Positions 10,186 through 64,000 of a stretch of 64,000 bases of DNA are shown here, in pieces (the stretch's first letter is position 1; each line of letters starts with the position of its first letter). The stretch lies in the NCBI RefSeq assembly GCF_054482525.1, contig NZ_CM137006.1, one strand, 5' to 3'. Below the pieces are notes generated by a model. The model was not told the DNA's origin, searched no databases, and worked only from the letters and a program-made list of their open reading frames with translations. The translations under genes were made by a program, and so were the position numbers.

Positions 10186-10233
10186 TCGCGCGAGGGACCC
10201 ATTACGTAATTTGCTAAATATGCGCTGAATGCG

Positions 10234-10520
10234 TTGCCATTAATAAACCGTATTGTAATGCCACCGATGACGCGTTCCCGCGCGGGTGACGTTGCGACTG
10301 ACATAATGGCGGACTATTACGCGCAGCGCGCCAGTGCTGGACTTTTCATTAGCGAAGGTACGCAAATCAGCAGAAGCGCTGCGCATAATTTTCCACGGCA
10401 CGCTGATTTACTCCGGTAAAGACACCAAAGCGCGCGCCGAACAGGCGCTGGCTAACGGCTAGTCGGATCTGATTGGATTTGGTCGTCCGTATAGTGCCAA
10501 AAGCGGAAGTTGGTAGTTTC
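10234..10520 (+). pseudogene. remnant of an Old Yellow Enzyme (NemA-like NADH:flavin oxidoreductase) gene with large internal deletion and premature stops
   Basis: ORF 10234..10419 INRIVMPPMTRSRAGDV...MADYYAQRASAGLFISEGTQIS matches OYE N-terminus; downstream ...GKDTKARAEQALANG*SDLIGFGRP matches OYE C-terminal region; intervening ~280 codons missing. Confidence 0.55.
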
Positions 10521-10612
10521 AGCCTATGTTGATAAACGGGGAGCCGGTCAGCACGTAAAGAGATTTTTTTGTACTGCTATGGCCCGATCAAAAATCGATT
10601 GAGCCGAATGTG

Positions 10613-10984
10613 CTAGCTATCTCCGAAGATAATTTTTTCGAGCTCCTGCAAGTCCTGCTGTGATTGCTCGTTAAGGTTAGCCTCTAACTTGTCGTACCAT
10701 GTAAGCAGTTTCTTGCCAAGTGGTGTCAAAACCGAGCCTCCACCTTTACTGCCGCCTGTTGATGTAATTACCACCGGCTTACCTATGCCTTTATTGAGTG
10801 TATCAATCAGGAGCCACGCCCTTTTATAGGGGATTCCCAGATCTTTTGCGGCAGCTGAAAGGGAATGAAACCCATCTATAGCTCGTAAAAGATCGATTTT
10901 CCCCGGTCCCAGCGAGATATTGTCATTAATGTAGATTCGGGGTCTGACCAAAATAAAATCAAACATAAGCGTTTTTTTATTCAT
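10613..10984 (-). CDS. ModE N-terminal-domain-like winged-helix transcriptional regulator (no TOBE domains)
   Basis: ORF 10613..11002; MNKKTLMFDF...IDLLRAIDGFHSLSAAAKDLGIPYKRAWLLIDTLNKGIGKPVVITSTGGSKGGGSVLTPLGKKLL; ATG 10984 preceded by GGAG. Confidence 0.65.
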   Translation of the reverse strand: MNKKTLMFDFILVRPRIYINDNISLGPGKIDLLRAIDGFHSLSAAAKDLGIPYKRAWLLIDTLNKGIGKPVVITSTGGSKGGGSVLTPLGKKLLTWYDKLEANLNEQSQQDLQELEKIIFGDS

Positions 10985-11009
10985 TCTGAGAACTCCGTGC
11001 AAAGTATTT

Positions 11010-11816
11010 TTATCGGGTGTGTTTGAAAGTTTTGATGGCAGAAATAAGAAGGATCACACCAAGTAAAGTCATAAGGGCTTTAAGTGGGAACAAGCCGACC
11101 ATAAGTCCACCAATTGCTGCACCAATTACTGAACCAATAACCATCCATACAAACAGTGTCCTTTCTTGCTTCAGAATCAGGAAAGCATCTGCATTTATAT
11201 AACGGGAAAAGCCAACAATCATTGTTGGCAGGCTAATCATCAGTGAAAGACTTCCGGCCAGTTTAATATCTGCCCCGAAAAGGATAACGATTGTGGGGAT
11301 AAGAAGCTCTCCGCCAGCCACTCCGAGCAATGCTGCGACTATCCCGATAAAGCCCCCTGATACCACCCCCACAATAATCATGGCAAGGCCAGGTTGAAAT
11401 AACCCGCCTGAAATACTGTGCAACGGCATCCAGGCTTCAGAGAGCATGACAAAAGACAGTAAAACAAGCAGGATCAGAATGATTCTGTCCAGCCAGATTC
11501 TGGACATCTTTATGGCACGACCTGCGGCCCACCATGCTCCAATAAGACTTCCTGCCAGCAAATTTATGACAATATCAAGATGCGCCACCAACTGATCAAA
11601 AGATATAGATTTTGTTCGGAAAATTAAAGCAATAGCCACCACGGCGAGACTCATTGCTTTGTTAAAAATGACGGCTTCCAGAGAAGGGATTTTGAAACTA
11701 CCGATCAGTACGGGAAGGCGAAATTCAGCCCCTCCGAGGCCAATCAACCCACCTAAAGCCCCTATTACCGCGCCTGAGAAAAAACCTTTACCATTCCTGT
11801 TTGAAACTGACGACAT
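11010..11816 (-). CDS. TauE/SafE (DUF81) family anion (sulfite/sulfonate-type) exporter, integral membrane
   Basis: 268 aa highly hydrophobic ORF with Gly-rich TM helices (GALGGLIGLGGAEF..., GVAGGELLIPTIVILF...); GAGAGGA RBS. Confidence 0.8.
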   Translation of the reverse strand: MSSVSNRNGKGFFSGAVIGALGGLIGLGGAEFRLPVLIGSFKIPSLEAVIFNKAMSLAVVAIALIFRTKSISFDQLVAHLDIVINLLAGSLIGAWWAAGRAIKMSRIWLDRIILILLVLLSFVMLSEAWMPLHSISGGLFQPGLAMIIVGVVSGGFIGIVAALLGVAGGELLIPTIVILFGADIKLAGSLSLMISLPTMIVGFSRYINADAFLILKQERTLFVWMVIGSVIGAAIGGLMVGLFPLKALMTLLGVILLISAIKTFKHTR

Positions 11817-11833
11817 GCGTTCCTCTCTAATTC

Positions 11834-11855
11834 GTTATGTCTTTTTTGACATAAC
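11834..11855. promoter_or_regulatory. perfect inverted repeat GTTATGTC-TTTTTT-GACATAAC just upstream of the TauE RBS (candidate operator or 5'-UTR hairpin); approximate
   Basis: 8-bp perfect arms, 6-nt T spacer, ~18-39 bp upstream of TauE start. Confidence 0.5.
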
Positions 11856-12000
11856 GACAAGCATAGCATTGCAGAACAGGCGTCTGGTAGTTGCTTGTAA
11901 AGACGAGGATTGATCCAGGTTAAAATTTATTCTATTAACCTGCTCTCCGTTGTTTAACACACCACGATTTATGTGATGCTTTCATGAGAAATTAAAACAA

Positions 12001-12207
12001 CTAAGAACTTCCGCTTCTCGCTCGAAGCGGACTGTCAGATTTGATTGCATTCTGGCTACGCAACTGGTCGGTTGGAATATGAAGTTGCTCACGAATAGCC
12101 TTAGCATCCGCAATTTCGTAGCGGGTCACCCGTGCAGGTTCTTTTAAACCTTGTTTAATCTCAACAGCCTCTTCCAGAGAGGTTTTCAACTTATCAAAAA
12201 AACTCAT
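12001..12207 (-). CDS. small ORF with N-terminal similarity to HigA/MqsA-type antitoxins but lacking the HTH; possible gene remnant
   Basis: 68 aa MSFFDKLKTSLEEAVEIKQGLKEPARVTRYEIADAKAIREQLHIPTDQ...; expected HTH helix absent in all frames downstream. Confidence 0.35.
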   Translation of the reverse strand: MSFFDKLKTSLEEAVEIKQGLKEPARVTRYEIADAKAIREQLHIPTDQLRSQNAIKSDSPLRARSGSS

Positions 12208-17718: not shown

Positions 17719-17982
17719 ATGATCGATCTGGAAAACCAGGAACGGGAGATTATCAATTTAATGTTCAGCCAGGGTATATCCTGGATAACTGCCGTGCGTA
17801 TCAGGCATAAACTATCACTTGCTGAAGTAAGTAAAATGTTAGGTATCTCCATTAATTCTCTAAAACAGATCGAAAAGACGGAACGGCTTAGTTCAAACAT
17901 CAAAAGCAAAATGGCAGGAATTTATGGTTGTCCACCAGAGTTGCTGATATGCCCTTCCTGGATGACGGCTGAACATAAATGA
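17719..17982 (+). CDS. small HTH (XRE/Cro-like) DNA-binding protein, strain-specific; sits where K-12 has yjjJ (hipH)
   Basis: 87 aa; HTH-like segment ...ISWITAVRIRHKLSLAEVSKMLGISINSLKQIEKTE...; strong RBS AAGGAAGGA; local sequence is AT-rich. Confidence 0.5.
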   Translation: MIDLENQEREIINLMFSQGISWITAVRIRHKLSLAEVSKMLGISINSLKQIEKTERLSSNIKSKMAGIYGCPPELLICPSWMTAEHK

Positions 17983-32923: not shown

Positions 32924-33010
32924 GCGAAGGTGGCGGAATTGGTAGACGCGCTAGCTTCAGGTGTTAGTGTCCTTACGGACGTGGGGGTTCAAGTCCCCCC
33001 CCTCGCACCA
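32924..33010 (+). tRNA. leuQ: tRNA-Leu (anticodon CAG), 87 nt incl. CCA
   Basis: gcgaaggtggcggaattggtagacgcgctagcttcaggtgttagtgtccttacggacgtgggggttcaagtcccccccctcgcacca; D-arm, CAG anticodon loop (cttCAGgt), long variable arm, T-arm GGTTCAAGTCC. Confidence 0.93.
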
Positions 33011-33038
33011 AAAACCACGTTGATATTGCTCGCACTGG

Positions 33039-33125
33039 GCGAAGGTGGCGGAATTGGTAGACGCGCTAGCTTCAGGTGTTAGTGTTCTTACGGACGTGGG
33101 GGTTCAAGTCCCCCCCCTCGCACCA
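33039..33125 (+). tRNA. leuP: tRNA-Leu (CAG), 87 nt; differs from flanking copies by one base in the variable arm (gtgtTctt vs gtgtCctt)
   Basis: second tandem copy after a 28-nt spacer. Confidence 0.93.
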
Positions 33126-33159
33126 AACGAGGCGATATCAAAAAAAGTAAGATGACTGT

Positions 33160-33246
33160 GCGAAGGTGGCGGAATTGGTAGACGCGCTAGCTTCAGGTGT
33201 TAGTGTCCTTACGGACGTGGGGGTTCAAGTCCCCCCCCTCGCACCA
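33160..33246 (+). tRNA. leuV: tRNA-Leu (CAG), 87 nt
   Basis: third tandem copy after a 34-nt spacer; identical to first copy. Confidence 0.93.
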
Positions 33247-33284
33247 ATTATCTTTACTTCCTTTCTTGTTGCTTCCCTGTTTTA

Positions 33285-44602: not shown

Positions 44603-45964
44603 GTGGAAAAAGAAAATATCACCCTCGATCCGCGTTCTTCATTTACTCCATCTTCGTCGGCAGATATTCCCGTGCCACCAGATGGATTAGTTCAACGCAG
44701 TACCCGAATTAAACGCATTCAAGCCACCGCCATGTTGTTATTATTTTTTGCGGCGGTAATCAATTATCTCGACCGCAGTTCGCTGTCGGTAGCAAATTTA
44801 ACGATTCGTGAAGAATTGGGATTAAGTGCCACCGAAATCGGCGCTTTGCTCTCCGTGTTTTCACTCGCTTACGGGATTGCGCAACTTCCTTGCGGCCCAC
44901 TATTGGATCGTAAAGGCCCACGCCTGATGCTGGGACTGGGGATGTTCTTCTGGTCACTGTTCCAGGCCATGTCTGGCATGGTGCACAGCTTTACGCAGTT
45001 CGTGTTGGTGCGTATCGGTATGGGGATTGGTGAAGCGCCGATGAACCCATGTGGCGTAAAAGTCATTAACGACTGGTTCAACATCAAAGAGCGCGGACGC
45101 CCGATGGGCTTCTTCAACGCAGCTTCTACCATTGGCGTAGCCGTAAGCCCACCGATTCTGGCAGCGATGATGCTGGTGATGGGCTGGCGCGGGATGTTTA
45201 TTACCATTGGTGTACTGGGGATTTTTCTCGCCATCGGCTGGTATATGCTCTATCGCAACCGCGAGCACGTAGAACTGACTGCCGTTGAACAAGCTTATCT
45301 CAATGCAGGTAGCGTCAATGCCCGCCGAGATCCGCTCAGTTTTGCCGAATGGCGCAGCCTGTTCCGTAACCGCACAATGTGGGGAATGATGCTCGGATTC
45401 AGTGGCATCAACTACACTGCGTGGCTGTATCTGGCCTGGCTTCCTGGTTACCTGCAAACAGCCTATAACCTGGATTTAAAAAGCACAGGGTTGATGGCGG
45501 CTATCCCTTTCCTGTTTGGGGCTGCCGGGATGCTGGTCAACGGTTACGTTACTGACTGGCTGGTCAAAGGGGGAATGGCTCCGATTAAAAGCCGTAAGAT
45601 CTGCATTATTGCCGGGATGTTCTGTTCTGCCGCCTTTACGCTGGTCGTACCGCAAGCGACAACATCCATGACGGCGGTTCTGCTGATTGGCATGGCACTG
45701 TTCTGTATTCACTTTGCCGGAACATCCTGCTGGGGCTTGATCCACGTCGCAGTTGCTTCTCGCATGACTGCATCGGTGGGCAGTATCCAGAACTTTGCCA
45801 GCTTCATCTGCGCCTCTTTTGCGCCGATCATTACTGGTTTTATTGTTGATACCACCCACTCATTCCGTCTGGCACTAATCATCTGCGGTTGCGTCACCGC
45901 GGCGGGTGCACTGGCGTACATCTTCCTGGTTCGTCAGCCGATCAACGACCCGCGTAAAGATTAA
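44603..45964 (+). CDS. lgoT: MFS L-galactonate:H+ symporter
   Basis: 453 aa, 12-TM MFS ORF MEKENITLDPRSSFTP...; GTG start. Confidence 0.88.
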   Translation: MEKENITLDPRSSFTPSSSADIPVPPDGLVQRSTRIKRIQATAMLLLFFAAVINYLDRSSLSVANLTIREELGLSATEIGALLSVFSLAYGIAQLPCGPLLDRKGPRLMLGLGMFFWSLFQAMSGMVHSFTQFVLVRIGMGIGEAPMNPCGVKVINDWFNIKERGRPMGFFNAASTIGVAVSPPILAAMMLVMGWRGMFITIGVLGIFLAIGWYMLYRNREHVELTAVEQAYLNAGSVNARRDPLSFAEWRSLFRNRTMWGMMLGFSGINYTAWLYLAWLPGYLQTAYNLDLKSTGLMAAIPFLFGAAGMLVNGYVTDWLVKGGMAPIKSRKICIIAGMFCSAAFTLVVPQATTSMTAVLLIGMALFCIHFAGTSCWGLIHVAVASRMTASVGSIQNFASFICASFAPIITGFIVDTTHSFRLALIICGCVTAAGALAYIFLVRQPINDPRKD

Positions 45965-46012
45965 TCTCCCTATGCCCGATAACATTTTGCTTATCGGGCA
46001 TTTTTATGGCGA

Positions 46013-47668
46013 TTAAAACGTTTCCCAGTTCTCCTCGCTATCTGCCATGGCCATTTTACGCGGCGTAGCTGGCGTCACGGTTTTTACCACAGCCGATGTT
46101 TCACGCTGCTGTTGCTGAATCCGGAACACTGCCACAGCTTCGGTCAGGCGACTGGCCTGCTCTTCCAGCGCGGCGGCGGCAGCGGCAGATTCTTCCACCA
46201 GCGCAGCGTTCTGTTGAGTTACCCGGTCCATCTCAGCGACCGCTAAGCCAACCTGATCGATACCACGGCTCTGCTCATCAGAAGCAGAAGCTATTTCGCC
46301 CATAATGTCCGTCACGCGGGTCACAGCACTGACAATCTCCGCCATTGTTTCCCCGGCGCTTTCGACCAGCGTAGAGCCAACATCCACTTTCCCCACCGAG
46401 TCTTCAATCAGGCTTTTAATTTCACGAGCCGCCTGGGCGCTACGCTGGGCCAGATTACGCACTTCTCCCGCAACCACCGCAAAACCGCGCCCTTGCTCAC
46501 CCGCACGCGCAGCCTCAACCGCGGCGTTCAAAGCCAGAATATTGGTCTGGAAGGCAATGCCGTCAATTACGCTGATAATATCGGCGATTTTCTGCGAACT
46601 GGTGGAGATATCGCGCATGGTCTGCACCACGTTATCCACCACTTTGCCGCCGCGTTGCGCCGTTTCAGAAGCACTTAATGCCAGATGGCTGGCCTGGCGC
46701 GCATTCTCGGCGTTCTGTTTCACCGTTGCGGTCAGTTGCTCCATGCTGGCTGCCGTCTCTTCCAGCGAAGCGGCCTGTTGCTCGGTGCGCGAAGAGAGAT
46801 CGTTATTACCGGTGGCGATTTCGCTGGCACCGCTATAGATGGCATTGGCCCCGTTGCGCACATCACCGACGGTACGCATCAGCTCTCCCTGCATATGGCG
46901 CAAACTCTCTGCCAGTTGCCCCATCTCATTAGAGCCATCCACCTCAATCGGTTTCACCAGATCGCCGCCTGCAATATGACGAATGCTGTCAATCAGGCGA
47001 TTCATTGGCGCTACCAACGAGGCTTTAATACCGAACCAGACGGCGAAGATGACCGCCAGTACGACGATCATCACGCCCACCAGAATCCACATCGCCTGGC
47101 TGTAGGAGGCATTGTTATCGCTGACGGCGATATCATAGAGCCGATCGTTTTGCTCCATGTAAGCCACATACTGCTTCTCGAAAGCGTCCTGATATCCCTG
47201 GGTCGGCTGATCAAAGAACTCGTTGATTTTGCCTGCACCTAACAGTTGGATCAGCTCCGCCAGCGCATTGTGATAAATATCGTAATTACGTTTGATCTCT
47301 GACGCTGCGGCGGTGCTCTGACGCGGGTCACGCGGCAACGCTTCGTAATCCGCCCAGTTTTTTTCCGCCTGTTTCAGCGAAATACTGGCACTCTGCATCA
47401 GCTCAGCAACGGTTGAACCGCTACCAATATTATTCTGATCCATCATGTAGCGGATACCCGCGCGGTTGAGGGTGTTACGCGTCTGCAACAACGCAACCCA
47501 GCTGCCATTCAGCGTGGATTGCTGCTGGCGAATGGTTTGTAAAACAGTGAAATTTTCTTTGTCATTCTTTAAGGCATTAAAGAACAGACCGCCTGAAGTC
47601 AGTTGTAAAAGGCCAAAAACGGCCAAAACCAGCAGTAAGCTGGTCACAATTTTGATACGTTTTAACAT
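46013..47668 (-). CDS. tsr: methyl-accepting chemotaxis protein I (serine chemoreceptor)
   Basis: 551 aa [43 protein letters not shown]...; HAMP and MCP signalling domain; C-terminal NWETF. Confidence 0.93.
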
Positions 47669-47786
47669 GGTTTCTCTTTCCTGTGGACCGATGCAAGATT
47701 TTCGGCCTGGAAAGCAAAAACTTTATGAAAAGGTGTAACCCGCCATCCATGGAAAAACCAGGCGCTGGTTATCAGATATTAAAAAG

Positions 47787-48233
47787 TTATTCATTATCGC
47801 CCGGGATGTCTTCTTGTCGGGAATTACCCAGAGCAATAAATTCCTCTAACAGATGGGTTAACTGTTGCATTTTCTCGGCAGTAAACTGAGCTTCAATCTG
47901 CCGATAGGCTTCTTCAATCTGTGTCTGAGCGCGGTTATACAGGGCCTGCCCCTCTTTGGTCAGCGAGATATAGAGCTTCCGCTGATCATTGATCGGCTTT
48001 AATCGCAACACTAAACCGTCGCGTTCCATCCGCGTGAGGATCCCGGTCAGGCTTGGGCGCAAAATGCAGGCGCGATACGCCAGATCGTGAAAATCCATTG
48101 ATGGGCTTTCCGCCAGAATACGCACGATGCGCCACTGTTGCTCTGTCAAATTATGCCGTTTAACGATTGGGCGAAAATAACTCATCGCCGCTTCTCGCGC
48201 CTGGAGCAACGCAATGGTTAGTGAGTCGTGCAT
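47787..48233 (-). CDS. hpaR: MarR-family repressor of the hpa meta-cleavage operon
   Basis: ORF 47787..48314; MHDSLTIALLQAREAAMSYFRPIVKRHNLTEQQWRIVRILAESPSMDFHDLAYRACI from codon 28. Confidence 0.85.
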   Translation of the reverse strand: MHDSLTIALLQAREAAMSYFRPIVKRHNLTEQQWRIVRILAESPSMDFHDLAYRACILRPSLTGILTRMERDGLVLRLKPINDQRKLYISLTKEGQALYNRAQTQIEEAYRQIEAQFTAEKMQQLTHLLEEFIALGNSRQEDIPGDNE

Positions 48234-48455
48234 TATCTTTCCCCTGAAAAATTCAAAATCATTAATATAGAAACAGTTAATCATCACGTTACCGGGACTG
48301 CGCTGCCCCTGCAATTCTTCATTTTATCAAAATTGAGCATGTTTTGTTAACTTACTGATATTTAATATTTTATTATCTTTAAATGTAAATAGTTTGTTAA
48401 TTAGATCACATTTACATCACTTACTTTTGCCAAACTACGCAATCGGGAATAAAAG

Positions 48456-48479
48456 TAATCATTAACATATTAATGATTA
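48456..48479. promoter_or_regulatory. candidate HpaR operator: near-perfect palindrome TAATCATTAACATATTAATGATTA overlapping the hpaG promoter; approximate
   Basis: 24-bp palindrome ~25 bp upstream of hpaG start in the hpaR/hpaG divergent region. Confidence 0.55.
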
Positions 48480-48504
48480 AGATGATCGAATCCGAGGAGT
48501 GGTA

Positions 48505-49794
48505 ATGAAAGGCACTATCTTCGCCGTAGCGTTGAACCATCGCAGCCAACTTGATGCATGGCAGGAAGCGTTCCAGCAATCCCCCTACAAAGCCCCGCCT
48601 AAAACTGCGGTCTGGTTTATTAAACCGCGCAATACGGTGATTGGTTGCGGTGAACCGATTCCCTTTCCACAGGGTGAAAAGGTACTGAGCGGTGCGACTG
48701 TTGCGCTGATTGTGGGAAAAACGGCGACGAAAGTACGTGAAGAAGATGCAGCAGAGTACATCGCCGGATATGCGCTGGCTAACGACGTCAGCCTGCCGGA
48801 AGAGAGCTTTTACCGCCCGGCAATCAAAGCAAAATGTCGTGATGGATTCTGCCCCATTGGCGAAACCGTGGCTCTCAGCAATGTCGATAATCTGACCATC
48901 TATACCGAGATCAACGGGCGTCCTGCCGATCACTGGAACACCGCCGATTTACAACGTAATGCCGCGCAGTTGCTGAGCGCTCTGAGCGAATTTGCCACGC
49001 TGAATCCAGGCGATGCCATTCTGCTCGGCACGCCACAGGCGCGCGTGGAAATACAGCCAGGCGATCGCGTTCGTGTTCTCGCTGAAGGTTTCCCGCCACT
49101 GGAAAATCCGGTAATGGACGAACGTGAAGTGACCACGCGCAAGAGCTTCCCAACGCAGCCACACCCGCACGGCACGCTGTTTGCCCTCGGCCTGAACTAC
49201 GCCGACCACGCCAGCGAACTGGAATTTAAGCCACCGGAAGAACCGCTGGTGTTCCTGAAAGCGCCGAATACCCTCACTGGCGATAACCAGACCTCCGTGC
49301 GCCCGAACAATATTGAATATATGCACTACGAAGCGGAGCTGGTGGTGGTGATTGGCAAGCAGGCGCGTAACGTCAGCGAAGCCGATGCTATGGATTATGT
49401 CGCGGGCTACACCGTGTGTAACGACTACGCCATTCGCGACTATCTGGAAAACTACTACCGCCCTAACCTGCGGGTAAAAAGCCGCGACGGACTGACGCCG
49501 ATGCTTTCAACCATCGTGCCGAAAGAGGCGATCCCGGACCCGCATAATCTGACCCTTCGCACCTTCGTCAACGGCGAGTTACGCCAGAAAGGCACCACCG
49601 CCGATCTGATCTTCAGCGTGCCCTTCCTGATCGCCTACTTAAGCGAATTTATGACCCTGAATCCGGGCGACATGATCGCCACCGGCACACCAAAAGGCTT
49701 ATCTGACGTGGTGCCTGGCGATGAAGTAGTAGTGGAAGTAGAAGGCGTGGGCCGCCTGGTGAACCGAATTGTGAGTGAGGAAACAGCGAAATGA
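48505..49794 (+). CDS. hpaG: bifunctional 5-carboxymethyl-2-oxo-hex-3-ene-1,7-dioate decarboxylase / isomerase (two FAH-like domains)
   Basis: ORF 48499..49794; MKGTIFAVALNHRSQLDAWQEAF...; GAGGAG RBS. Confidence 0.9.
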   Translation: MKGTIFAVALNHRSQLDAWQEAFQQSPYKAPPKTAVWFIKPRNTVIGCGEPIPFPQGEKVLSGATVALIVGKTATKVREEDAAEYIAGYALANDVSLPEESFYRPAIKAKCRDGFCPIGETVALSNVDNLTIYTEINGRPADHWNTADLQRNAAQLLSALSEFATLNPGDAILLGTPQARVEIQPGDRVRVLAEGFPPLENPVMDEREVTTRKSFPTQPHPHGTLFALGLNYADHASELEFKPPEEPLVFLKAPNTLTGDNQTSVRPNNIEYMHYEAELVVVIGKQARNVSEADAMDYVAGYTVCNDYAIRDYLENYYRPNLRVKSRDGLTPMLSTIVPKEAIPDPHNLTLRTFVNGELRQKGTTADLIFSVPFLIAYLSEFMTLNPGDMIATGTPKGLSDVVPGDEVVVEVEGVGRLVNRIVSEETAK

Positions 49795-51257
49795 AAAAAG
49801 TAAATCATTGGATCAACGGCAAAAATGTTGCAGGTAACGACTACTTCCAGACCACCAATCCGGCAACGGGTGAAGTGCTGGCGGATGTGGCCTCTGGCGG
49901 TGAAGCGGAGATCAATCAGGCGGTAGCGGCAGCGAAAGAGGCGTTCCCGAAATGGGCCAATCTGCCGATGAAAGAGCGTGCGCGCCTGATGCGCCGTCTG
50001 GGCGATCTGATCGACCAGAACGTGCCTGAGATCGCCGCGATGGAAACCGCGGACACGGGCCTGCCAATCCATCAGACCAAAAATGTGTTGATCCCACGCG
50101 CTTCTCACAACTTTGAATTTTTCGCGGAAGTCTGCCAGCAGATGAACGGCAAGACCTATCCGGTTGACGACAAGATGCTCAACTACACGCTGGTGCAACC
50201 GGTAGGCGTTTGTGCGCTGGTATCGCCGTGGAACGTGCCGTTTATGACCGCCACATGGAAGGTCGCGCCGTGTCTGGCGCTGGGCAATACCGCGGTGTTG
50301 AAAATGTCGGAACTCTCCCCGCTGACCGCTGACCGCCTGGGTGAGCTGGCGCTGGAAGCCGGTATTCCGGCGGGCGTGCTGAACGTGGTACAGGGCTACG
50401 GCGCAACCGCAGGCGATGCGCTGGTTCGTCATCATGACGTACGTGCCGTGTCGTTCACCGGCGGTACGGCCACCGGGCGCAACATCATGAAAAACGCCGG
50501 GCTGAAAAAATACTCCATGGAACTGGGCGGTAAATCGCCGGTGCTGATTTTTGAAGATGCCGATATTGAACGCGCGCTGGACGCTGCCCTGTTCACCATC
50601 TTCTCGATCAACGGCGAGCGCTGCACCGCCGGTTCGCGCATCTTTATTCAGCAAAGCATCTACCCGGAATTCGTTAAACGCTTTGCCGAACGCGCCAACC
50701 GTCTGCGCGTGGGCGATCCGAACGATCCGAATACCCAGGTTGGGGCGCTTATCAGCCAGCAACACTGGGAAAAAGTCTCCGGCTATATTCGTCTCGGCAT
50801 TGAAGAAGGCGCAACCCTGCTGGCGGGCGGTCCGGATAAACCGTCCGACCTGCCTGCGCACCTGAAAGGCGGCAACTTCCTGCGCCCAACGGTGCTGGCT
50901 GACGTTGATAACCGTATGCGCGTCGCCCAGGAAGAGATTTTCGGGCCGGTCGCCTGTCTGCTGCCGTTTAAAGACGAAGCCGAAGGCTTACGTCTGGCAA
51001 ACGACGTGGAGTACGGCCTCGCGTCGTACATCTGGACACAGGATGTCAGCAAAGTGTTACGCCTGGCGCGTGGCATTGAAGCAGGCATGGTGTTCGTCAA
51101 CACCCAGAACGTGCGTGACCTGCGCCAGCCATTTGGCGGCGTAAAAGCCTCCGGCACCGGGCGTGAAGGCGGTGAGTACAGCTTCGAAGTGTTCGCGGAA
51201 ATGAAGAACGTCTGCATTTCCATGGGCGACCATCCAATTCCGAAATGGGGAGTCTGA
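49791..51257 (+). CDS. hpaE: 5-carboxymethyl-2-hydroxymuconate semialdehyde dehydrogenase
   Basis: 488 aa aldehyde dehydrogenase; ATGA start/stop overlap with hpaG. Confidence 0.9.
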   Translation: MKKVNHWINGKNVAGNDYFQTTNPATGEVLADVASGGEAEINQAVAAAKEAFPKWANLPMKERARLMRRLGDLIDQNVPEIAAMETADTGLPIHQTKNVLIPRASHNFEFFAEVCQQMNGKTYPVDDKMLNYTLVQPVGVCALVSPWNVPFMTATWKVAPCLALGNTAVLKMSELSPLTADRLGELALEAGIPAGVLNVVQGYGATAGDALVRHHDVRAVSFTGGTATGRNIMKNAGLKKYSMELGGKSPVLIFEDADIERALDAALFTIFSINGERCTAGSRIFIQQSIYPEFVKRFAERANRLRVGDPNDPNTQVGALISQQHWEKVSGYIRLGIEEGATLLAGGPDKPSDLPAHLKGGNFLRPTVLADVDNRMRVAQEEIFGPVACLLPFKDEAEGLRLANDVEYGLASYIWTQDVSKVLRLARGIEAGMVFVNTQNVRDLRQPFGGVKASGTGREGGEYSFEVFAEMKNVCISMGDHPIPKWGV

Positions 51258-51258
51258 T

Positions 51259-52110
51259 ATGGGTAAGTTAGCGTTAGCCGCCAAGATCACGCACGTACCG
51301 TCGATGTATCTCTCTGAACTGCCAGGGAAAAACCACGGTTGCCGCCAGGGTGCGATTGACGGGCATAAAGAGATCAGCAAGCGTTGCCGGGAAATGGGCG
51401 TCGATACCATTATCGTTTTCGATACCCACTGGCTGGTCAACAGTGCTTATCACATCAACTGTGCAGACCATTTTGAAGGCGTCTACACCAGCAACGAGCT
51501 GCCGCATTTTATCCGCGATATGACCTACAACTACGAGGGCAACCCGGAGTTGGGGCAGCTTATTGCCGATGAAGCCTTAAAACTCGGCGTGCGGGCAAAA
51601 GCGCACAATATTCCCAGCCTGAAACTGGAATACGGCACGCTGGTGCCAATGCGCTACATGAATGAAGACAAGCACTTCAAAGTGGTCTCCATTTCGGCTT
51701 TCTGCACGGTTCACGATTTTGCCGACAGCCGCAAGCTTGGCGAAGCGATTGTGAAAGCGATCGAACAGTACGACGGCACCGTGGCGGTCCTTGCCAGCGG
51801 TTCGTTATCGCACCGCTTTATTGACGATCAGCGTGCGGAAGAAGGGATGAACAGCTACACCCGCGAGTTCGACCGCCAGATGGACGAGCGCGTGGTGAAG
51901 CTGTGGCGCGAAGGCCAGTTCAAAGAGTTCTGCAATATGCTGCCGGAGTACGCCGACTACTGCTACGGCGAAGGCAATATGCACGACACGGTGATGCTGC
52001 TGGGGATGCTCGGCTGGGATAAATACGACGGCAAGGTGGAGTTTATTACCGAGCTGTTCCCAAGCTCTGGCACTGGTCAGGTTAACGCTGTTTTCCCGCT
52101 TCCCGCGTAA
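51259..52110 (+). CDS. hpaD: 3,4-dihydroxyphenylacetate (homoprotocatechuate) 2,3-dioxygenase
   Basis: 283 aa ORF MGKLALAAKITHVPSMYLSELPGKNHGCRQGAIDGHKE... Confidence 0.9.
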   Translation: MGKLALAAKITHVPSMYLSELPGKNHGCRQGAIDGHKEISKRCREMGVDTIIVFDTHWLVNSAYHINCADHFEGVYTSNELPHFIRDMTYNYEGNPELGQLIADEALKLGVRAKAHNIPSLKLEYGTLVPMRYMNEDKHFKVVSISAFCTVHDFADSRKLGEAIVKAIEQYDGTVAVLASGSLSHRFIDDQRAEEGMNSYTREFDRQMDERVVKLWREGQFKEFCNMLPEYADYCYGEGNMHDTVMLLGMLGWDKYDGKVEFITELFPSSGTGQVNAVFPLPA

Positions 52111-52119
52111 GGAACCACC

Positions 52120-52500
52120 ATGCCGCACTTTATCGTGGAATGTACTGAAAATATTCGTCAAGAAGCCCGCTTACCTGAGCTGTTTGCCAGTGTTAACACC
52201 GCACTGGCGGCGACGGGGATTTTTCCGCTTGGGGGAATACGTAGCCGGGCGCACTGGATCGATACCTGGCAAATGGCCGATGGCAAGCACGATTACGCCT
52301 TTGTGCATATGACGCTAAAAATCGGCAGCGGGCGCAGTCTGGAAAGCCGTCAGGAAGTAGGTGAAATGCTGTTTGATCTGATTAAAACGCACTTCGCCTC
52401 ACTGATGGAGAGCCGTTACCTGGCGCTTTCATTTGAGATTGCAGAGCTGCACCCGACGTTGAATTTCAAACAGAACAACGTACACGCGTTGTTTAAATAA
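52120..52500 (+). CDS. hpaF: 5-carboxymethyl-2-hydroxymuconate delta-isomerase
   Basis: 126 aa [36 protein letters not shown]... Confidence 0.9.
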
Positions 52501-52567
52501 ATTTGCACCAGCTTCCAGGCCGGATGATAAGGCGCAGCCGCATCCGGCAATGCCACAGGATATCGCC

Positions 52568-53371
52568 ATGTTCGATAAACACACCCACACCCTGATCGCC
52601 CAGCGTCTGGATCAGGCAGAAAAACAGCGCGAACAGATCCGCGCGATCTCGCTGGATTACCCGGAGATCACCATCGAAGACGCTTACGCGGTGCAGCGTG
52701 AATGGGTTCGACTGAAAATCGCCGAAGGTCGCACGCTGAAAGGCCACAAAATCGGCCTGACCTCGAAAGCGATGCAGGCCAGCTCACAAATCAGCGAGCC
52801 GGATTACGGTGCCCTGCTGGATGACATGTTCTTCCACGATGGCAGCGATATCCCGACCGATCGCTTTATCGTGCCGCGCATTGAAGTGGAGCTGGCTTTC
52901 GTGCTGGCAAAACCGCTGCGTGGGCCAAACTGCACGCTGTTCGACGTTTACAACGCCACGGACTATGTGATCCCGGCGCTGGAGCTGATCGACGCTCGCT
53001 GCCACAACATCGATCCGGAAACCCAGCGCCCGCGTAAAGTGTTCGACACCATTTCTGATAACGCCGCCAATGCCGGGGTGATCCTCGGTGGTCGTCCGAT
53101 CAAACCTGACGAGCTGGATCTGCGTTGGATCTCCGCCCTCATGTATCGCAATGGCGTGATTGAAGAAACCGGCGTCGCCGCTGGTGTGCTGAATCATCCG
53201 GCAAACGGCGTGGCCTGGCTGGCGAACAAACTCGCACCGTATGACGTACAACTGGAAGCCGGGCAAATCATTCTCGGCGGTTCGTTCACCCGCCCGGTTC
53301 CGGCGCGTAAGGGCGACACCTTCCACGTCGATTACGGCAACATGGGTTCCATTAGCTGCCGCTTTGTTTAA
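52568..53371 (+). CDS. hpaH: 2-oxo-hept-4-ene-1,7-dioate hydratase
   Basis: ORF 52550..53371; [28 protein letters not shown]... from codon 7. Confidence 0.88.
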
Positions 53372-53381
53372 GGAGAGAACG

Positions 53382-54170
53382 ATGGAAAACAGTTTTAAAG
53401 CGGCGCTGAAAGCAGGCCGCCCGCAGATCGGATTATGGCTGGGGCTAAGTAGCAGCTACAGCGCAGAGTTACTGGCCGGAGCAGGATTCGACTGGTTATT
53501 GATCGACGGTGAGCACGCGCCGAATAACGTGCAAACCGTGCTCACCCAACTACAGGCGATTGCGCCCTATCCCAGCCAGCCGGTAGTACGTCCGTCGTGG
53601 AACGATCCGGTGCAAATCAAACAACTGCTGGACGTCGGCACACAAACCTTACTGGTGCCGATGGTACAAAACGCCGACGAAGCCCGTGAAGCGGTACGCG
53701 CCACCCGTTATCCCCCCGCCGGTATTCGTGGTGTGGGCAGTGCGCTGGCCCGCGCCTCGCGCTGGAATCGTATTCCTGATTACCTGCAAAAAGCCAACGA
53801 TCAAATGTGCGTGCTGGTGCAGATCGAAACGCGTGAGGCAATGAAGAACCTACCGCAGATTCTGGACGTGGAAGGGGTAGACGGCGTGTTTATCGGCCCG
53901 GCGGATCTGAGCGCCGATATGGGTTATGCCGGTAATCCGCAGCACCCGGAAGTGCAGGCCGCCATTGAACAGGCGATCGTGCAAATCCGTGAAGCGGGCA
54001 AAGCGCCGGGGATCCTGATCGCCAATGAGCAACTGGCAAAACGCTACCTGGAACTGGGCGCGCTATTTGTCGCCGTCGGCGTTGACACCACCCTGCTCGC
54101 CCGCGCCGCCGAAGCGCTGGCAGCACGGTTTGGCGCGCAGGCTACAGCGATTAAGCCCGGCGTGTATTAA
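53382..54170 (+). CDS. hpaI: 4-hydroxy-2-oxo-heptane-1,7-dioate aldolase (HpcH/HpaI family)
   Basis: in-frame part of ORF 53241..54170; [48 protein letters not shown]; GGAGAG RBS. Confidence 0.88.
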
Positions 54171-54250
54171 TGCCGGATGCGCTGCGCTTATCCGGCCTAC
54201 ACTCGCACCAAACCGTAGGCCGGATAAGGCGTTTACGCCGCATCCGCCAT
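54171..54250. repeat. REP/BIME palindromic repeats after hpaI; approximate
   Basis: tgccggatgcgctgcgcttatccggcctac...gtaggccggataaggcgtttacgccgcatccg. Confidence 0.8.
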
Positions 54251-54293
54251 AAACCTTGTCGTACCCTACAAAAATCCCATTAGAGGAAGAAAA

Positions 54294-55670
54294 ATGAGCG
54301 ACACCTCACCTGCCATACCGGAAAGTATCGATCCGGCAAATCAGCATAAAACGCTGACTGCCGGACAACAGGCGGTTATTAAGAAGCTGTTTCGCCGCCT
54401 GATCGTCTTTCTGTTCGTGCTGTTTATCTTCTCGTTCCTTGATCGCATCAACATCGGCTTTGCCGGGCTCACGATGGGACGCGACCTCGGTCTGAGCGCC
54501 ACCATGTTTGGCCTCGCCACCACCCTGTTCTACGCCGCTTATGTCATCTTCGGCATTCCCAGCAACATTATGCTGAGTATTGTCGGTGCGCGGCGCTGGA
54601 TCGCCACCATCATGGTGCTTTGGGGCATCGCCTCTACGGTCACCATGTTTGCCACTGGCCCCACCAGCTTGTACGTACTGCGCATACTGGTTGGCATTAC
54701 CGAAGCCGGCTTTCTGCCTGGCATTCTGCTGTATTTAACCTTCTGGTTTCCGGCCTATTTCCGCGCCCGTGCCAACGCCTTGTTTATGGTAGCAATGCCG
54801 GTAACGACAGCGTTGGGATCGATCGTTTCCGGCTACATTTTGTCGCTGGATGGCGTAATGGCATTAAAAGGCTGGCAGTGGCTGTTTTTGCTGGAAGGCT
54901 TCCCGTCGGTATTACTCGGCGTCATGGTGTGGTTCTGGCTTGATGACTCACCGGACAAAGCTAAGTGGCTGACGAAAGAAGACAAAAAATGCCTGCAAGA
55001 GATGATGGATAACGATCGTCTGACGCTGGTTCAGCCAGAGGGAGCCATCAGCCACCACGCCATGCAACAACGCAGCATGTGGCGGGAGATCTTCACTCCG
55101 GTGGTGATGATGTATACCCTGGCGTATTTCTGCCTGACCAACACACTTAGTGCAATCAGCATCTGGACACCGCAGATCCTACAAAGCTTTAATCAGGGTA
55201 GCAGTAATATCACCATCGGCCTGCTGGCCGCCGTACCGCAGATTTGTACCATTCTCGGGATGATCTACTGGAGCCGTCACTCAGATCGCCGCCAGGAACG
55301 AAGGCATCACACCGCCCTTCCTTATTTGTTCGCTGCCGCTGGTTGGTTACTGGCTTCGGCAACTGATCACAACATGATCCAGATGCTGGGGATCATTATG
55401 GCTTCGACCGGATCATTCAGCGCAATGGCGATTTTCTGGACAACACCGGATCAGTCCATCAGCCTGCGGGCACGAGCGATCGGTATTGCGGTGATCAACG
55501 CCACTGGCAACATTGGTTCAGCATTAAGTCCGTTTATGATCGGCTGGTTGAAAGATCTGACCGGCAGCTTTAACAGTGGATTGTGGTTTGTTGCCGCGCT
55601 GCTGGTGATTGGTGCGGGGATTATCTGGGCGATTCCAATGCAGTCCTCCCGTCCGCGAGCGACCCCGTAA
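54294..55670 (+). CDS. hpaX: MFS 4-hydroxyphenylacetate permease
   Basis: 458 aa 12-TM MFS ORF. Confidence 0.88.
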   Translation: MSDTSPAIPESIDPANQHKTLTAGQQAVIKKLFRRLIVFLFVLFIFSFLDRINIGFAGLTMGRDLGLSATMFGLATTLFYAAYVIFGIPSNIMLSIVGARRWIATIMVLWGIASTVTMFATGPTSLYVLRILVGITEAGFLPGILLYLTFWFPAYFRARANALFMVAMPVTTALGSIVSGYILSLDGVMALKGWQWLFLLEGFPSVLLGVMVWFWLDDSPDKAKWLTKEDKKCLQEMMDNDRLTLVQPEGAISHHAMQQRSMWREIFTPVVMMYTLAYFCLTNTLSAISIWTPQILQSFNQGSSNITIGLLAAVPQICTILGMIYWSRHSDRRQERRHHTALPYLFAAAGWLLASATDHNMIQMLGIIMASTGSFSAMAIFWTTPDQSISLRARAIGIAVINATGNIGSALSPFMIGWLKDLTGSFNSGLWFVAALLVIGAGIIWAIPMQSSRPRATP

Positions 55671-55679
55671 GGAACGACG

Positions 55680-56570
55680 ATGTGTGACCGTCAGATTGCC
55701 AATATTGATATCAGCAAAGAGTACGATGAAAGCCTGGGTACTGACGATGTGCATTATCAGTCGTTCGCCCGCATGGCGGCATTTTTTGGCCGCCATATGC
55801 TGCCACATCGCCACGAACAGTACTTTCAGATGCATTTCCTCAATAGCGGACAGATTGAGCTACAGCTTGACGATCATCGCTACTCGGTGGAAGCGCCCCT
55901 GTTTGTCCTGACGCCACCGTCAGTACCTCATGCGTTTATTACGGAGTCTGACGCCGACGGTCATGTGTTGACGGTACGGGAAGATCTGATCTGGCCCCTG
56001 CTGGAAGTTCTTTATCCGGGCACTCGGGAAACCTTCGGCCTGCCGGGGATTTGCCTGTCACTGGCAGATAAACCCGACGAACTGGCGGCGCTGGAACACT
56101 ATTGGCAACTGATAGAGCGGGAATCGGTAGAACAACTGCCTGGACGGGAACACACCCTGACGCTACTGGCACAGGCAGTGTTCACCCTACTGCTGCGTAA
56201 CGCAAAACTCGACGACCATGCCGCCAGCGGGATGCGCGGAGAATTAAAACTGTTCCAACGTTTTCATATGCTGATTGAAAGCCATTTTCACCAGCACTGG
56301 ACAGTACCGGATTACGCTAACGAACTGCATATCACCGAATCACGACTCACGGACATCTGCCGTCGCTTTGCCAACCGTCCGCCAAAACGGTTGATTTTCG
56401 ACAGGCAGCTGCGAGAAGCCAAACGGCTGCTGCTGTTTTCTGATAACGCCGTGAACAATATTGCCTGGCAACTCGGTTTTAAGGATCCGGCTTATTTTGC
56501 CCGCTTTTTTAATCGCTTAGTCGGTTGCTCGCCCAGTGCTTATCGTGCCAAAAAAGTACCTGTGACGTGA
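55680..56570 (+). CDS. hpaA: AraC/XylS-family activator of hpaBC
   Basis: 296 aa ORF; cupin-like N-terminal domain and C-terminal AraC HTH (...AYFARFFNRLVGCSPSAYR). Confidence 0.88.
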   Translation: MCDRQIANIDISKEYDESLGTDDVHYQSFARMAAFFGRHMLPHRHEQYFQMHFLNSGQIELQLDDHRYSVEAPLFVLTPPSVPHAFITESDADGHVLTVREDLIWPLLEVLYPGTRETFGLPGICLSLADKPDELAALEHYWQLIERESVEQLPGREHTLTLLAQAVFTLLLRNAKLDDHAASGMRGELKLFQRFHMLIESHFHQHWTVPDYANELHITESRLTDICRRFANRPPKRLIFDRQLREAKRLLLFSDNAVNNIAWQLGFKDPAYFARFFNRLVGCSPSAYRAKKVPVT

Positions 56571-56820
56571 AAATCCCTTAGCCTTAACGGGAAACCAGGC
56601 ACCACCTGCTATTCCCCTTTCTCCGCCTGGAGCAAGGGGATTTAGTAACGTTAAAAATCGTTAAAAGCGACCTCGATCACAAAACCGTACCCGACATGAA
56701 AAGTACCAGCCATTGTCCCAAAAGTGTCTTCCCGTAATCGCCCCTGCAAGCTTCAATTGAATAACAAAAACAACACACAAAATTAACAATCGTATTCCGA
56801 TTAATACTGTAGAGGTCGAC

Positions 56821-58383
56821 ATGAAACCAGAAGATTTCCGCGCCAGTACCCAACGTCCGTTCACCGGGGAAGAGTATCTGAAAAGCCTGCAGGATGGTCG
56901 AGAGATCTATATCTATGGCGAGCGAGTGAAAGACGTCACCACTCATCCGGCATTTCGTAATGCGGCAGCGTCTGTTGCCCAACTGTACGACGCGCTACAC
57001 AAACCGGAGATGCAGGACTCTCTGTGTTGGAACACCGACACCGGCAGCGGCGGCTATACCCATAAATTCTTCCGCGTGGCGAAAAGTGCCGACGACCTGC
57101 GCCAGCAACGCGACGCCATCGCTGAGTGGTCACGCCTGAGCTATGGCTGGATGGGCCGTACCCCAGACTACAAAGCTGCTTTCGGTTGCGCACTGGGCGC
57201 GAATCCGGGCTTTTACGGTCAGTTCGAGCAGAACGCCCGTAACTGGTACACCCGTATTCAGGAAACTGGCCTCTACTTTAACCACGCGATTGTTAACCCA
57301 CCGATCGATCGTCATTTGCCGACCGATAAAGTAAAAGACGTTTACATCAAGCTGGAAAAAGAGACTGACGCCGGGATTATCGTCAGCGGTGCGAAAGTGG
57401 TTGCCACCAACTCGGCGCTGACTCACTACAACATGATTGGCTTCGGCTCGGCACAAGTGATGGGCGAAAACCCGGACTTCGCACTGATGTTCGTTGCGCC
57501 AATGGATGCCGATGGCGTGAAATTAATCTCCCGCGCCTCTTATGAGATGGTCGCGGGTGCTACCGGCTCGCCGTACGACTACCCGCTCTCCAGCCGCTTC
57601 GATGAGAACGATGCGATTCTGGTGATGGATAACGTGCTGATCCCATGGGAAAACGTGCTGATCTACCGCGATTTTGATCGCTGCCGTCGCTGGACGATGG
57701 AAGGCGGTTTCGCCCGTATGTATCCGCTGCAAGCCTGTGTGCGCCTGGCAGTGAAATTAGACTTCATTACGGCACTGCTGAAAAAATCACTCGAATGTAC
57801 CGGCACCCTGGAGTTCCGTGGCGTGCAGGCCGATCTCGGTGAAGTGGTGGCGTGGCGCAACACCTTCTGGGCATTGAGTGACTCGATGTGTTCAGAAGCA
57901 ACGCCGTGGGTCAACGGGGCTTATTTACCGGATCATGCCGCACTGCAAACCTATCGCGTACTGGCACCAATGGCCTACGCGAAGATCAAAAACATTATCG
58001 AACGCAACGTTACCAGTGGCCTGATCTATCTCCCTTCCAGTGCCCGTGACCTGAACAATCCGCAGATCGACCAGTATCTGGCGAAGTATGTGCGCGGTTC
58101 GAATGGTATGGATCACGTCCAGCGCATCAAGATCCTCAAACTGATGTGGGATGCCATTGGCAGCGAATTTGGTGGTCGTCACGAACTGTATGAAATCAAC
58201 TACTCCGGTAGCCAGGATGAGATTCGCCTGCAGTGTCTGCGCCAGGCACAAAGCTCCGGCAATATGGACAAGATGATGGCGATGGTTGATCGCTGCCTGT
58301 CGGAATACGACCAGAACGGCTGGACTGTGCCGCACCTGCACAACAACGACGATATCAACATGCTGGATAAGCTGCTGAAATAA
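56821..58383 (+). CDS. hpaB: 4-hydroxyphenylacetate 3-monooxygenase, oxygenase component
   Basis: 520 aa ORF MKPEDFRASTQRPFTGEEYLKSLQDGREIYIYGERVKDVTTHPAFRNAA... Confidence 0.92.
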   Translation: MKPEDFRASTQRPFTGEEYLKSLQDGREIYIYGERVKDVTTHPAFRNAAASVAQLYDALHKPEMQDSLCWNTDTGSGGYTHKFFRVAKSADDLRQQRDAIAEWSRLSYGWMGRTPDYKAAFGCALGANPGFYGQFEQNARNWYTRIQETGLYFNHAIVNPPIDRHLPTDKVKDVYIKLEKETDAGIIVSGAKVVATNSALTHYNMIGFGSAQVMGENPDFALMFVAPMDADGVKLISRASYEMVAGATGSPYDYPLSSRFDENDAILVMDNVLIPWENVLIYRDFDRCRRWTMEGGFARMYPLQACVRLAVKLDFITALLKKSLECTGTLEFRGVQADLGEVVAWRNTFWALSDSMCSEATPWVNGAYLPDHAALQTYRVLAPMAYAKIKNIIERNVTSGLIYLPSSARDLNNPQIDQYLAKYVRGSNGMDHVQRIKILKLMWDAIGSEFGGRHELYEINYSGSQDEIRLQCLRQAQSSGNMDKMMAMVDRCLSEYDQNGWTVPHLHNNDDINMLDKLLK

Positions 58384-58400
58384 CGCAGCAGGAGGTTAAG

Positions 58401-58913
58401 ATGCAATTAGATGAACAACGCCTGCGCTTTCGTGACGCAATGGCCAGCCTGTCGGCAGCGGTAAATATTATCACCACCGAGGGCAACGCCGGGCAATGCG
58501 GGATTACGGCAACGGCTGTCTGCTCGGTCACGGATACACCACCGTCGCTGATGGTGTGCATTAACGCCAACAGTGCGATGAACCCGGTTTTTCAGGGCAA
58601 CGGTAAGTTGTGCGTCAACGTCCTCAACCATGAGCAGGAACTGATGGCACGCCACTTCGCGGGCATGACAGGCATGGCGATGGAAGAGCGTTTTAGCCTC
58701 TCATGCTGGCAAAAAGGTCCGCTGGCGCAGCCGGTGCTAAAAGGTTCGCTGGCCAGTCTTGAAGGTGAGATCCGCGATGTGCAGGCAATTGGCACACATC
58801 TGGTGTATCTGGTGGAGATTAAAAACATCATCCTCAGTGCAGAAGGTCACGGACTTATCTACTTTAAACGCCGTTTCCATCCGGTGATGCTGGAAATGGA
58901 AGCTGCGATTTAA
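58401..58913 (+). CDS. hpaC: 4-hydroxyphenylacetate 3-monooxygenase, flavin reductase component
   Basis: 170 aa ORF MQLDEQRLRFRDAMASLSAAVNIITTEGNAGQCGITATAVCSVTDTPPSLMVCIN...; GGAGG RBS. Confidence 0.9.
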   Translation: MQLDEQRLRFRDAMASLSAAVNIITTEGNAGQCGITATAVCSVTDTPPSLMVCINANSAMNPVFQGNGKLCVNVLNHEQELMARHFAGMTGMAMEERFSLSCWQKGPLAQPVLKGSLASLEGEIRDVQAIGTHLVYLVEIKNIILSAEGHGLIYFKRRFHPVMLEMEAAI

Positions 58914-61719: not shown

Positions 61720-62676
61720 ATGAACCCGATTGCAGTTACCCTACTCACCGGTTTTTTAGGCGCGGGCAAAACCACCCTGCTGCGCCATATTCTTAACGAA
61801 CAACACGGCTACAAGATTGCCGTGATTGAAAACGAATTCGGCGAAGTCTCCGTTGATGATCAACTGATTGGCGATCGCGCCACGCAGATCAAAACGCTGA
61901 CCAACGGCTGCATCTGCTGTTCGCGCTCCAACGAGCTGGAGGACGCGCTACTCGACCTGCTGGACAATCTCGACAAGGGCAATATTCAGTTCGACCGTCT
62001 GGTCATTGAATGCACCGGCATGGCCGATCCCGGCCCGATTATTCAGACCTTTTTCTCCCATGAGATTTTATGCCAGCGCTACCTGCTGGACGGCGTGATT
62101 GCGCTGGTGGACGCGGTACATGCCGATGAGCAGATGAACCAGTTCACCATCGCCCAGTCACAGGTTGGCTACGCCGACCGTATTCTGCTGACTAAAACCG
62201 ACGTCGCAGGTGAAGCAGAAAAACTGCGCGAACGCCTGGCACGCATCAACGCCCGCGCACCGGTCTACACCGTTACCCACGGCGACATCGACCTGGGCCT
62301 GCTGTTCAACACCAACGGTTTTATGCTGGAAGAGAACGTCGTCAGCACCAAACCGCGTTTCCACTTTATCGCGGATAAACAAAACGATATTTCGTCGATT
62401 GTGGTGGAACTGGATTACCCGGTAGATATCAGCGAAGTTTCCCGGGTGATGGAAAACCTGCTGCTGGAGTCGGCAGATAAACTGCTGCGTTACAAAGGGA
62501 TGCTGTGGATTGACGGCGAACCTAACCGTCTGCTGTTCCAGGGCGTCCAGCGCCTCTACAGCGCCGACTGGGACCGCCCGTGGGGCGATGAAAAACCGCA
62601 TAGCACGATGGTGTTTATCGGGATTCAGCTGCCGGAGGATGAGATTCGGGCGGCGTTTGCGGAACTCAAAAAGTAA
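61720..62676 (+). CDS. yjiA: CobW/HypB/UreG-family P-loop GTPase YjiA (Zn-associated)
   Basis: in-frame part of ORF 61636..62676; MNPIAVTLLTGFLGAGKTTLLRHILNE Walker A; GCICCS metal motif. Confidence 0.88.
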   Translation: MNPIAVTLLTGFLGAGKTTLLRHILNEQHGYKIAVIENEFGEVSVDDQLIGDRATQIKTLTNGCICCSRSNELEDALLDLLDNLDKGNIQFDRLVIECTGMADPGPIIQTFFSHEILCQRYLLDGVIALVDAVHADEQMNQFTIAQSQVGYADRILLTKTDVAGEAEKLRERLARINARAPVYTVTHGDIDLGLLFNTNGFMLEENVVSTKPRFHFIADKQNDISSIVVELDYPVDISEVSRVMENLLLESADKLLRYKGMLWIDGEPNRLLFQGVQRLYSADWDRPWGDEKPHSTMVFIGIQLPEDEIRAAFAELKK

Positions 62677-62753
62677 CCAGCCCTCCAACATCACAATACC
62701 TGAGACTTTATCACCCTCATATTCCTCCTGAATATGAGGGCTTTCGGGCTTAA

Positions 62754-64000
62754 TTATCTCTGAACGTGCAACACTTCCTGCGACTCCTTATGCGCCTCCA
62801 CATCCTGCTTCGTTAACCAGAGCGACTTACGACCAAAATTTTCGTACATTTTCAGCTGATCTTCATAGTGCTTATCAACTGTTCCATCGGGAGCAATAAA
62901 TCCACTCTGACCGGGTGCGACCACATCCCAGGCAAGCACCGGGCGATCGCTCGTCATTGGTGAGAAGACAATCATATCGTTTTCTGTTCCACGGTTTTGA
63001 TACTCCGCCTGATGACGCGCTTCTTCCGCTGCGGCCTGCGGTACGCCAAAGAAATTATTTGCCCGGAACGTTAAGGCCATTGCAGGTGTTTTCCAGTTAC
63101 TCACATTATTGCCATAGCGTTTGGAAAGAGTCTCCCAGGTATCTTCCAGCGCAGCCAACACAACCTCCTGCTGTGATTTCCCGGCAAACAGATCAACCGC
63201 CTGTGGGATTGGTGATTTGTCTCCCTGCACCGCCTCATACAAAATTTTTGCTCCAACACTTATATTCAGCGAACCAGTTGGACCGTCCTGGGTTGTTTCG
63301 TAGCCACTGGCGCTGTACCACTTATCAAATGGCATAGGTACAACAGCCACTACGGTACGCTTCAACATACTGGTCAGCCAAACGTTTAGGATGGCAGAGC
63401 CTGGCTGTTGCCAGGTTTTACCATCATCATTGAGCAGATTGATGCCATCCCAACGTGTTAATGTTTCTACCAACTGACGACGCGGATCGCTCTGTGTCAA
63501 ACCAGATGTCGCTGCTTGCAGAGTAGGTAAAAAAAGCCTCAGGTTAAGATCCTGACGACTGGTTTGGCGAATAACATCCCATGCCTGATCAGCAGTTAAG
63601 CGTGGCTTTTGCTCAAGCAGTCGGTCGATCTCCGTAACGCGATCTGCACCACCCCACAAAAAGGCAAACAGATCCGAAGCGGGATAATCTTTTTGGGGGG
63701 AATTGTTCCAGTTAGCAATATATCCCGACTGGGGGTTATACACCTTAGGGTTCATTTCAAAAGGCAATAGCCCTTTCCAGTCCCATTTTCCCGTACCAGG
63801 AACGGGTAATCGCGGATCATGGCCTGATTGACGATCTGGATAAGCACCAGTATGAACATAACCAATATTGCCGTTTACATCAGCATAGTACCAGTTGATG
63901 GTCAGTGCTTGTTTCGCTGCCTGCTGTGTCCACTCCTGCCAATTTTTGGCCTTCATCTGATGAGTCCAGGCCAGCAAAGACGCCACCTCTTTACCATCCC
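62754..64000 (-). CDS. pac: penicillin G acylase (Ntn-hydrolase), 3' portion; gene continues beyond window end
   Basis: ORF 62754..63986 with no start in window; C-terminus ...[30 protein letters not shown] and internal ...[56 protein letters not shown] match E. coli penicillin amidase beta subunit. Confidence 0.85.

Follow-up and report, generated by a model that had tools for sequence, protein, structure and literature searches.

Few enzyme genes of industrial use have been studied as intensively as pac, which encodes penicillin G acylase and is used for making 6-aminopenicillanic acid; the structure and maturation of its product, its regulation, and its chromosomal position in Escherichia coli W have all been published. 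Solved structures cover the enzyme of E. coli ATCC 11105/E. coli W (1PNK and 1GK9, with 1E3A for the precursor) and that of Kluyvera cryocrescens (citrophila) (4PEL/4PEM, with the engineered single-chain variants 7REO/7REP), which belongs to the same family and has the same subunit layout. The enzyme splits penicillin G into phenylacetate and 6-aminopenicillanic acid (PMC3032704), and, in nature, it is described as scavenging naturally occurring phenylacetate esters and amides as well as those of related acids (PMC9493321). Binding of PaaX to the pga promoter is relieved by phenylacetyl-CoA (PMC9493321). In E. coli W, pac occupies a chromosomal slot that extends from yjiA to yjiS near hpa, and the genes hsdMRS, mcrBC, and mrr are replaced by it (PMC3032704).

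In this work, we analyzed a 64,000-nucleotide stretch (hereafter, the window) of contig NZ_CM137006.1 from the RefSeq assembly GCF_054482525.1. Judging from the comparisons given below, the window very probably (roughly 97%) ends in the 3′ half of a chromosomal pac that encodes a penicillin G acylase (penicillin amidase, EC 3.5.1.11), likely a phenylacetyl scavenger, and that sits in a cassette between yjiA and yjiS. The features of this region are listed in Table 1.

Table 1. Positions of pac, its flank and spacer, and two hpa genes in the window.
Feature	Position	Strand	Evidence or context
hpaB	56821-58383		hpa cluster
hpaC	58401-58913		hpa cluster end, 3.8 kb from pac
yjiA (GTPase), conserved flank	61720..62676	+	annotation, BLAST boundaries, sequence comparison
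Spacer between convergent yjiA (+) and pac (-), 77 bp	62677..62753	.	strain-variable; K-12 homology ends about 62662
Hairpin, 12-bp stem, 5-nt loop	62713..62741	.	fold -21.5 kcal/mol, z = -3.3
pac 3′ part, 1247 nt	62754..64000	-	open frame; PDB match; PF01804; annotated by RefSeq as "penicillin G acylase" in a genome with 100% identity

At the end of the window, a minus-strand frame (62754-63998) runs for 414 codons without a stop before reaching a TAA (62754-62756), and it continues past the window edge. These are codons 433-846 of the 846 codons of pac (49%); the other 432 (51%) lie past position 64000, with bases 63999-64000 belonging to codon 432 as its second and third positions. The program-made list of open reading frames gives instead a 410-aa product that starts from an internal GTG, because frames that cross the window end are omitted from that list. 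When the 414-aa product was searched against all PDB chain sequences, it matched residues 144-557 of the β chain of the E. coli penicillin G acylase (1GK9, 1PNK, and 1E3A) from end to end, with 410 of the 414 residues identical (99.0%; E = 6.7e-286). The first-pass annotation had described a minus-strand frame ending at 62754, had read its product as the C-terminal part of the β subunit, and had placed the N-terminal part beyond 64000. The open frame and its TAA agree with the strand and coordinates, the end-to-end match agrees with the subunit, and the 432 codons farther on agree with the placement of the N-terminal part.

The remainder of the gene was read from a near-identical chromosome. 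Three complete E. coli chromosomes (PCN033, SCU-102, and 19KM1776) match the last 1401 bases of the window at every position, and the window differs from PCN033 by one mismatch in its last 9401 bases and two in its first 50,000 (3 of the 59,401 bases compared); its source is therefore PCN033 or a strain very closely related to it. In PCN033, the pac coding sequence (2541 nt; 846 aa) is annotated as penicillin G acylase and carries no pseudogene flag. Ser β1, the spacer peptide, the α chain, the signal peptide, and the promoter, all located outside the window, were taken from this strain. Its full-length product aligns to residues 1-260 of 1E3A_A (α chain and spacer) and to residues 1-557 of 1GK9_B (β chain), and in the precursor the signal peptide takes up 26 aa, the α chain 209 aa, the spacer 54 aa, and the β chain 557 aa, which are the same segment lengths as in the E. 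coli ATCC 11105/W enzyme. The first 26 residues (MKNRNRMIVNCVTAYLMCCWSLPALA) end in ALA/EQ, and the EQSSSEIK that follows corresponds to the crystallized α chain from residue 1 onward. The β chain starts with SNMWVIGK, and the spacer-β junction reads ...GYPTT/SNMWVIGK, with the Thr-Ser junction present and Ser β1 placed directly after the 54-aa spacer. The signal peptide of an E. coli-type enzyme is thus found in the PCN033 sequence, and export is predicted. Extending the sequence past 64000 and aligning it to the known enzyme, as the first-pass annotation had suggested, returned an intact 846-aa match, and the near-identity to the characterized E. coli-type penicillin G acylase (EC 3.5.1.11) holds along the full length. 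From what is known of the E. coli enzyme, the 846-aa precursor would be exported to the periplasm via its signal peptide and would then cleave itself, releasing the spacer and exposing the Ser β1 nucleophile; the α/β heterodimer (209 + 557 aa) so formed would hydrolyze the phenylacetyl amide bond.

For the comparison of functional sites, we take Ser β1 to be the nucleophile, Asn β241 and Ala β69 to form the oxyanion hole, and Gln β23, Phe β24, Arg β263 (at the active site), Met α142, and Phe α146 to be further functional residues; Glu α152, Asp β73, Val β75, Asp β76, Pro β205, and Asp β252 are taken as the Ca2+ ligands. All of these functional residues and six of the six Ca2+ ligands are present, such that the checked catalytic and Ca2+ residues are the same as in the E. 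coli ATCC 11105/W enzyme. Residues 144-557 of the β chain are encoded in the window and include Asn β241, Arg β263, Pro β205, and Asp β252, while Ala β69 and Gln β23 come from the PCN033 extension. Unlike the E. coli ATCC 11105/W enzyme, the window part carries four β-chain substitutions relative to the crystallized protein (A362V, P418S, T470A, and T491M), none of which falls on a checked functional residue. There are a few more differences outside the window (read from PCN033), including V34A and N196S in the α chain as well as differences in the spacer from the crystallized sequence; a change from R to Q near residue 98 of the PCN033 β chain is seen in a Kluyvera-like alignment only. The host is likewise PCN033-like and not W. 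From these residues and segments, the pac gene looks complete and competent.

The weaker matches in the PDB search appeared in the expected order, with scores of 846 bits for Kluyvera, 594 for Providencia, and 295 for Alcaligenes compared with 951 for the E. coli enzyme. The K. cryocrescens enzyme aligns from end to end but is more divergent over the same 414 residues, with many substitutions. By this comparison, the window carries the E. coli orthologue.

Of 5426 complete E. coli genomes searched, 1074 (about 20%) had a match to the pac portion of the window at 95-100% identity. There were 1078 matching places, including 1077 in chromosomes and one in a plasmid. When the query also spanned the end of yjiA, at least 80% of it was covered in a single place in 1071 genomes; therefore, the yjiA-pac junction is essentially fixed. 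The carriers include O145:H28 and O103:H2 strains and isolates from humans, cattle, dogs, birds, and water. The gene had been called a hallmark accessory gene of particular strains in the first-pass annotation. Its accessory status stands, but the implied rarity does not, given the number of genomes and the many hosts and serotypes: pac is a fairly common accessory gene, not a marker of few strains. In some genomes (e.g., NZ_AP042682.1, NZ_OY754834.1, and NZ_CP020106.1), the 1247-nt pac query aligns over 1245, 1246, or 1248 nt, and one genome has only a 72% piece of it, annotated as "penicillin acylase family protein." Such length-shifted or partial copies may reflect frameshifts in pac or its disruption in some members of the species.

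We consider it very improbable that the pac of the source genome itself is a pseudogene, or is truncated past 64000, and gives no active enzyme. The half that is visible in the window is intact, the three chromosomes that share the last 1401 bases do so without a single difference, and PCN033 has an intact and unflagged coding sequence; these observations outweigh the location of the 5′ 51% of the gene outside the window and the indication, from the alignments that are off by 1-2 nt and the 72% piece, that damaged copies may exist in the species. A complete pac thus remains the preferred reading for this genome.

The chromosomal setting was compared with that of K-12. With the part past 64000 taken from PCN033, the gene order here is hpaBC, btsT, yjiX, yjiA (+), pac (-), yjiS, and yjiR, whereas K-12 has yjiA-mrr-hsdRMS-symE-mcrBC-yjiV-yjiT-yjiS. 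By BLAST, the homology to K-12 breaks at about 62663 in the window, 14 nt before yjiA itself ends, and a second break coincides with the stop codon of yjiS. The final stretch of yjiA (62663-62676) differs from K-12, and the C terminus of YjiA reads ...AELKK here vs. ...AGLRK in K-12; therefore, the edge of the variable segment lies inside the yjiA coding sequence and not after it. The variable segment is 2,988 bp long and consists of pac with 356 bp upstream and 91 bp downstream; the pac segment has a G+C content of 47% compared to 52.6% for the whole window. In K-12, the same slot between yjiS and yjiA measures 16,007 bp and is known as the "immigration control region" (yjiT-yjiV-mcrCB-symE-hsdSMR-mrr). 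The contents of the two are unrelated: 16.0 kb of restriction and other genes in K-12 and a 3.0-kb cassette of pac with its promoter here, at a site that holds restriction genes in other E. coli. In the annotation of this locus, no hsd, mcr, or mrr genes were found in the yjiA-yjiS slot of the PCN033-type arrangement, and the replacement is of the same kind as that reported for E. coli W.

The spacer between the convergent yjiA and pac contains a hairpin (Table 1), and none of 200 shuffled sequences folded as well. This hairpin lacks a T-run, and a scan of positions 62500-62900 for consensus terminators and promoters found nothing and did not call it. The hairpin is a candidate two-way terminator or 3′-end stabilizer.

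Several other segments of the window differ from K-12. A full hpa (4-hydroxyphenylacetate catabolism) cluster, with hpaR, hpaB, and hpaC, is located at about 45,500-58,913 between tsr and btsT, where K-12 has a short intergenic gap only; hpa is a second accessory aromatic-catabolism block here. The genes nadR and ettA adjoin each other in K-12 but are separated here by about 5.9 kb (approximately 6,525-12,207) that has no K-12 counterpart. This segment contains a nadS fragment, genes for a TauE/SafE exporter, a winged-HTH protein, and two tiny hypothetical proteins, as well as DUF1471, SRPBCC, SDR oxidoreductase, aldo/keto reductase, and LysR regulator genes. Between deoD and lplA, a 264-nt helix-turn-helix gene is found at about 17,719-17,982, and K-12 has the 1.3-kb kinase-toxin gene hipH (yjjJ) instead. 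Also, three tandem tRNA-Leu genes are located at approximately 33,000-33,250 beside yjjZ and rsmC, which is an ordinary feature of the core genome.

Regarding function, this pac most likely serves, in nature, to supply aromatic-acid catabolism by scavenging phenylacetyl and hydroxyphenylacetyl esters and amides. The genomic setting fits a scavenger role because the hpa catabolic cluster lies 3.8 kb from pac. PaaX would repress pac expression, and phenylacetyl-CoA would lift this repression. The 356-bp region upstream of pac in PCN033 contains GATTCG and ...GATCACA... (TCACA-like) elements, which we take to be candidates for the PaaX- and CRP-type sites of the published promoter.

A function in β-lactam resistance, with pac serving to inactivate penicillin, is highly unlikely. 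Penicillin G acylase removes the side chain of its substrate and leaves the β-lactam ring intact. The enzyme does cleave penicillin G (PMC3032704; PMC9493321), yet it has been described as a PaaX-controlled enzyme that scavenges phenylacetyl esters and amides (PMC9493321), and here it is found in a chromosomal catabolic neighborhood beside hpa, with 1077 of the 1078 places in the species chromosomal and no resistance-element context seen. We therefore continue to regard phenylacetyl scavenging as the probable role.

The family assignment was examined with profile models. The window fragment matched PF01804 (Penicil_amidase) with 167.5 bits (E = 8.9e-49) over positions 316-675 of the 675-position profile, i.e., the C-terminal half, as expected for this part of the protein, and the full-length pac product matched it with 462.4 bits over positions 2-675 of 675; the cut-off is 21.3 in both cases. 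Both the fragment and the full-length protein therefore fall within the PF01804 penicillin amidase family (Ntn-hydrolase acylases). Together with the 99.0% identity to the solved E. coli enzyme, this upholds the penicillin amidase (Ntn-hydrolase) identity put forward in the first-pass annotation.

Among the NCBIfam models, none matched the window fragment; because NCBIfam lacks a model specific to penicillin G acylase, no equivalog-level assignment was obtained. With the full-length protein, the PvdQ model alone was returned, for the N-terminal 120 residues and with 57.6 bits, far under its equivalog cut-off of 950, such that the protein does not belong to the PvdQ/AHL acylases. In the PDB search, the penicillin G acylases of the 6NVW/8BR* group scored about 175-180 bits, and D-succinylase was matched over a partial stretch only (E = 6.6e-15). 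The glutaryl-7-ACA/cephalosporin acylases were matched over 80-115 residues with E values of 3e-6 to 9e-5 (about 1e-5 to 1e-6 for the cephalosporin acylases, in partial stretches only), and membership in this group was rejected as well. A different Ntn acylase, whether of the glutaryl-7-ACA/cephalosporin, AHL/PvdQ, or D-succinylase type, has a negligible probability. These enzymes share PF01804 with the window gene and give weak PDB matches, with PvdQ as the sole NCBIfam model returned, but the penicillin G acylase is 99% identical over the whole fragment. A different amidase family, named in the first-pass annotation as the contrary outcome, is thus ruled out by the weak matches to glutaryl/cephalosporin acylases and the far sub-threshold score of PvdQ.

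Taken as an E. coli penicillin G acylase gene, pac and its chromosomal position here are already known, confirmed, and ordinary. It is a rather improbable, speculative thought that the PCN033-type allele could differ measurably in stability, processing, or substrate range, or that the choice between pac and restriction genes at yjiS-yjiA could be under selection as a trade-off in which aromatic scavenging is weighed against protection from foreign DNA. The finding matters little past a correct annotation. What it does show for the species is that pac, carried by roughly a fifth of the complete E. coli genomes and almost always at the same yjiA junction, commonly fills the "immigration control" slot instead and is no rarity there, and that restriction genes of the hsd, mcr, and mrr types are absent from the yjiA-yjiS locus of the PCN033-type strain.
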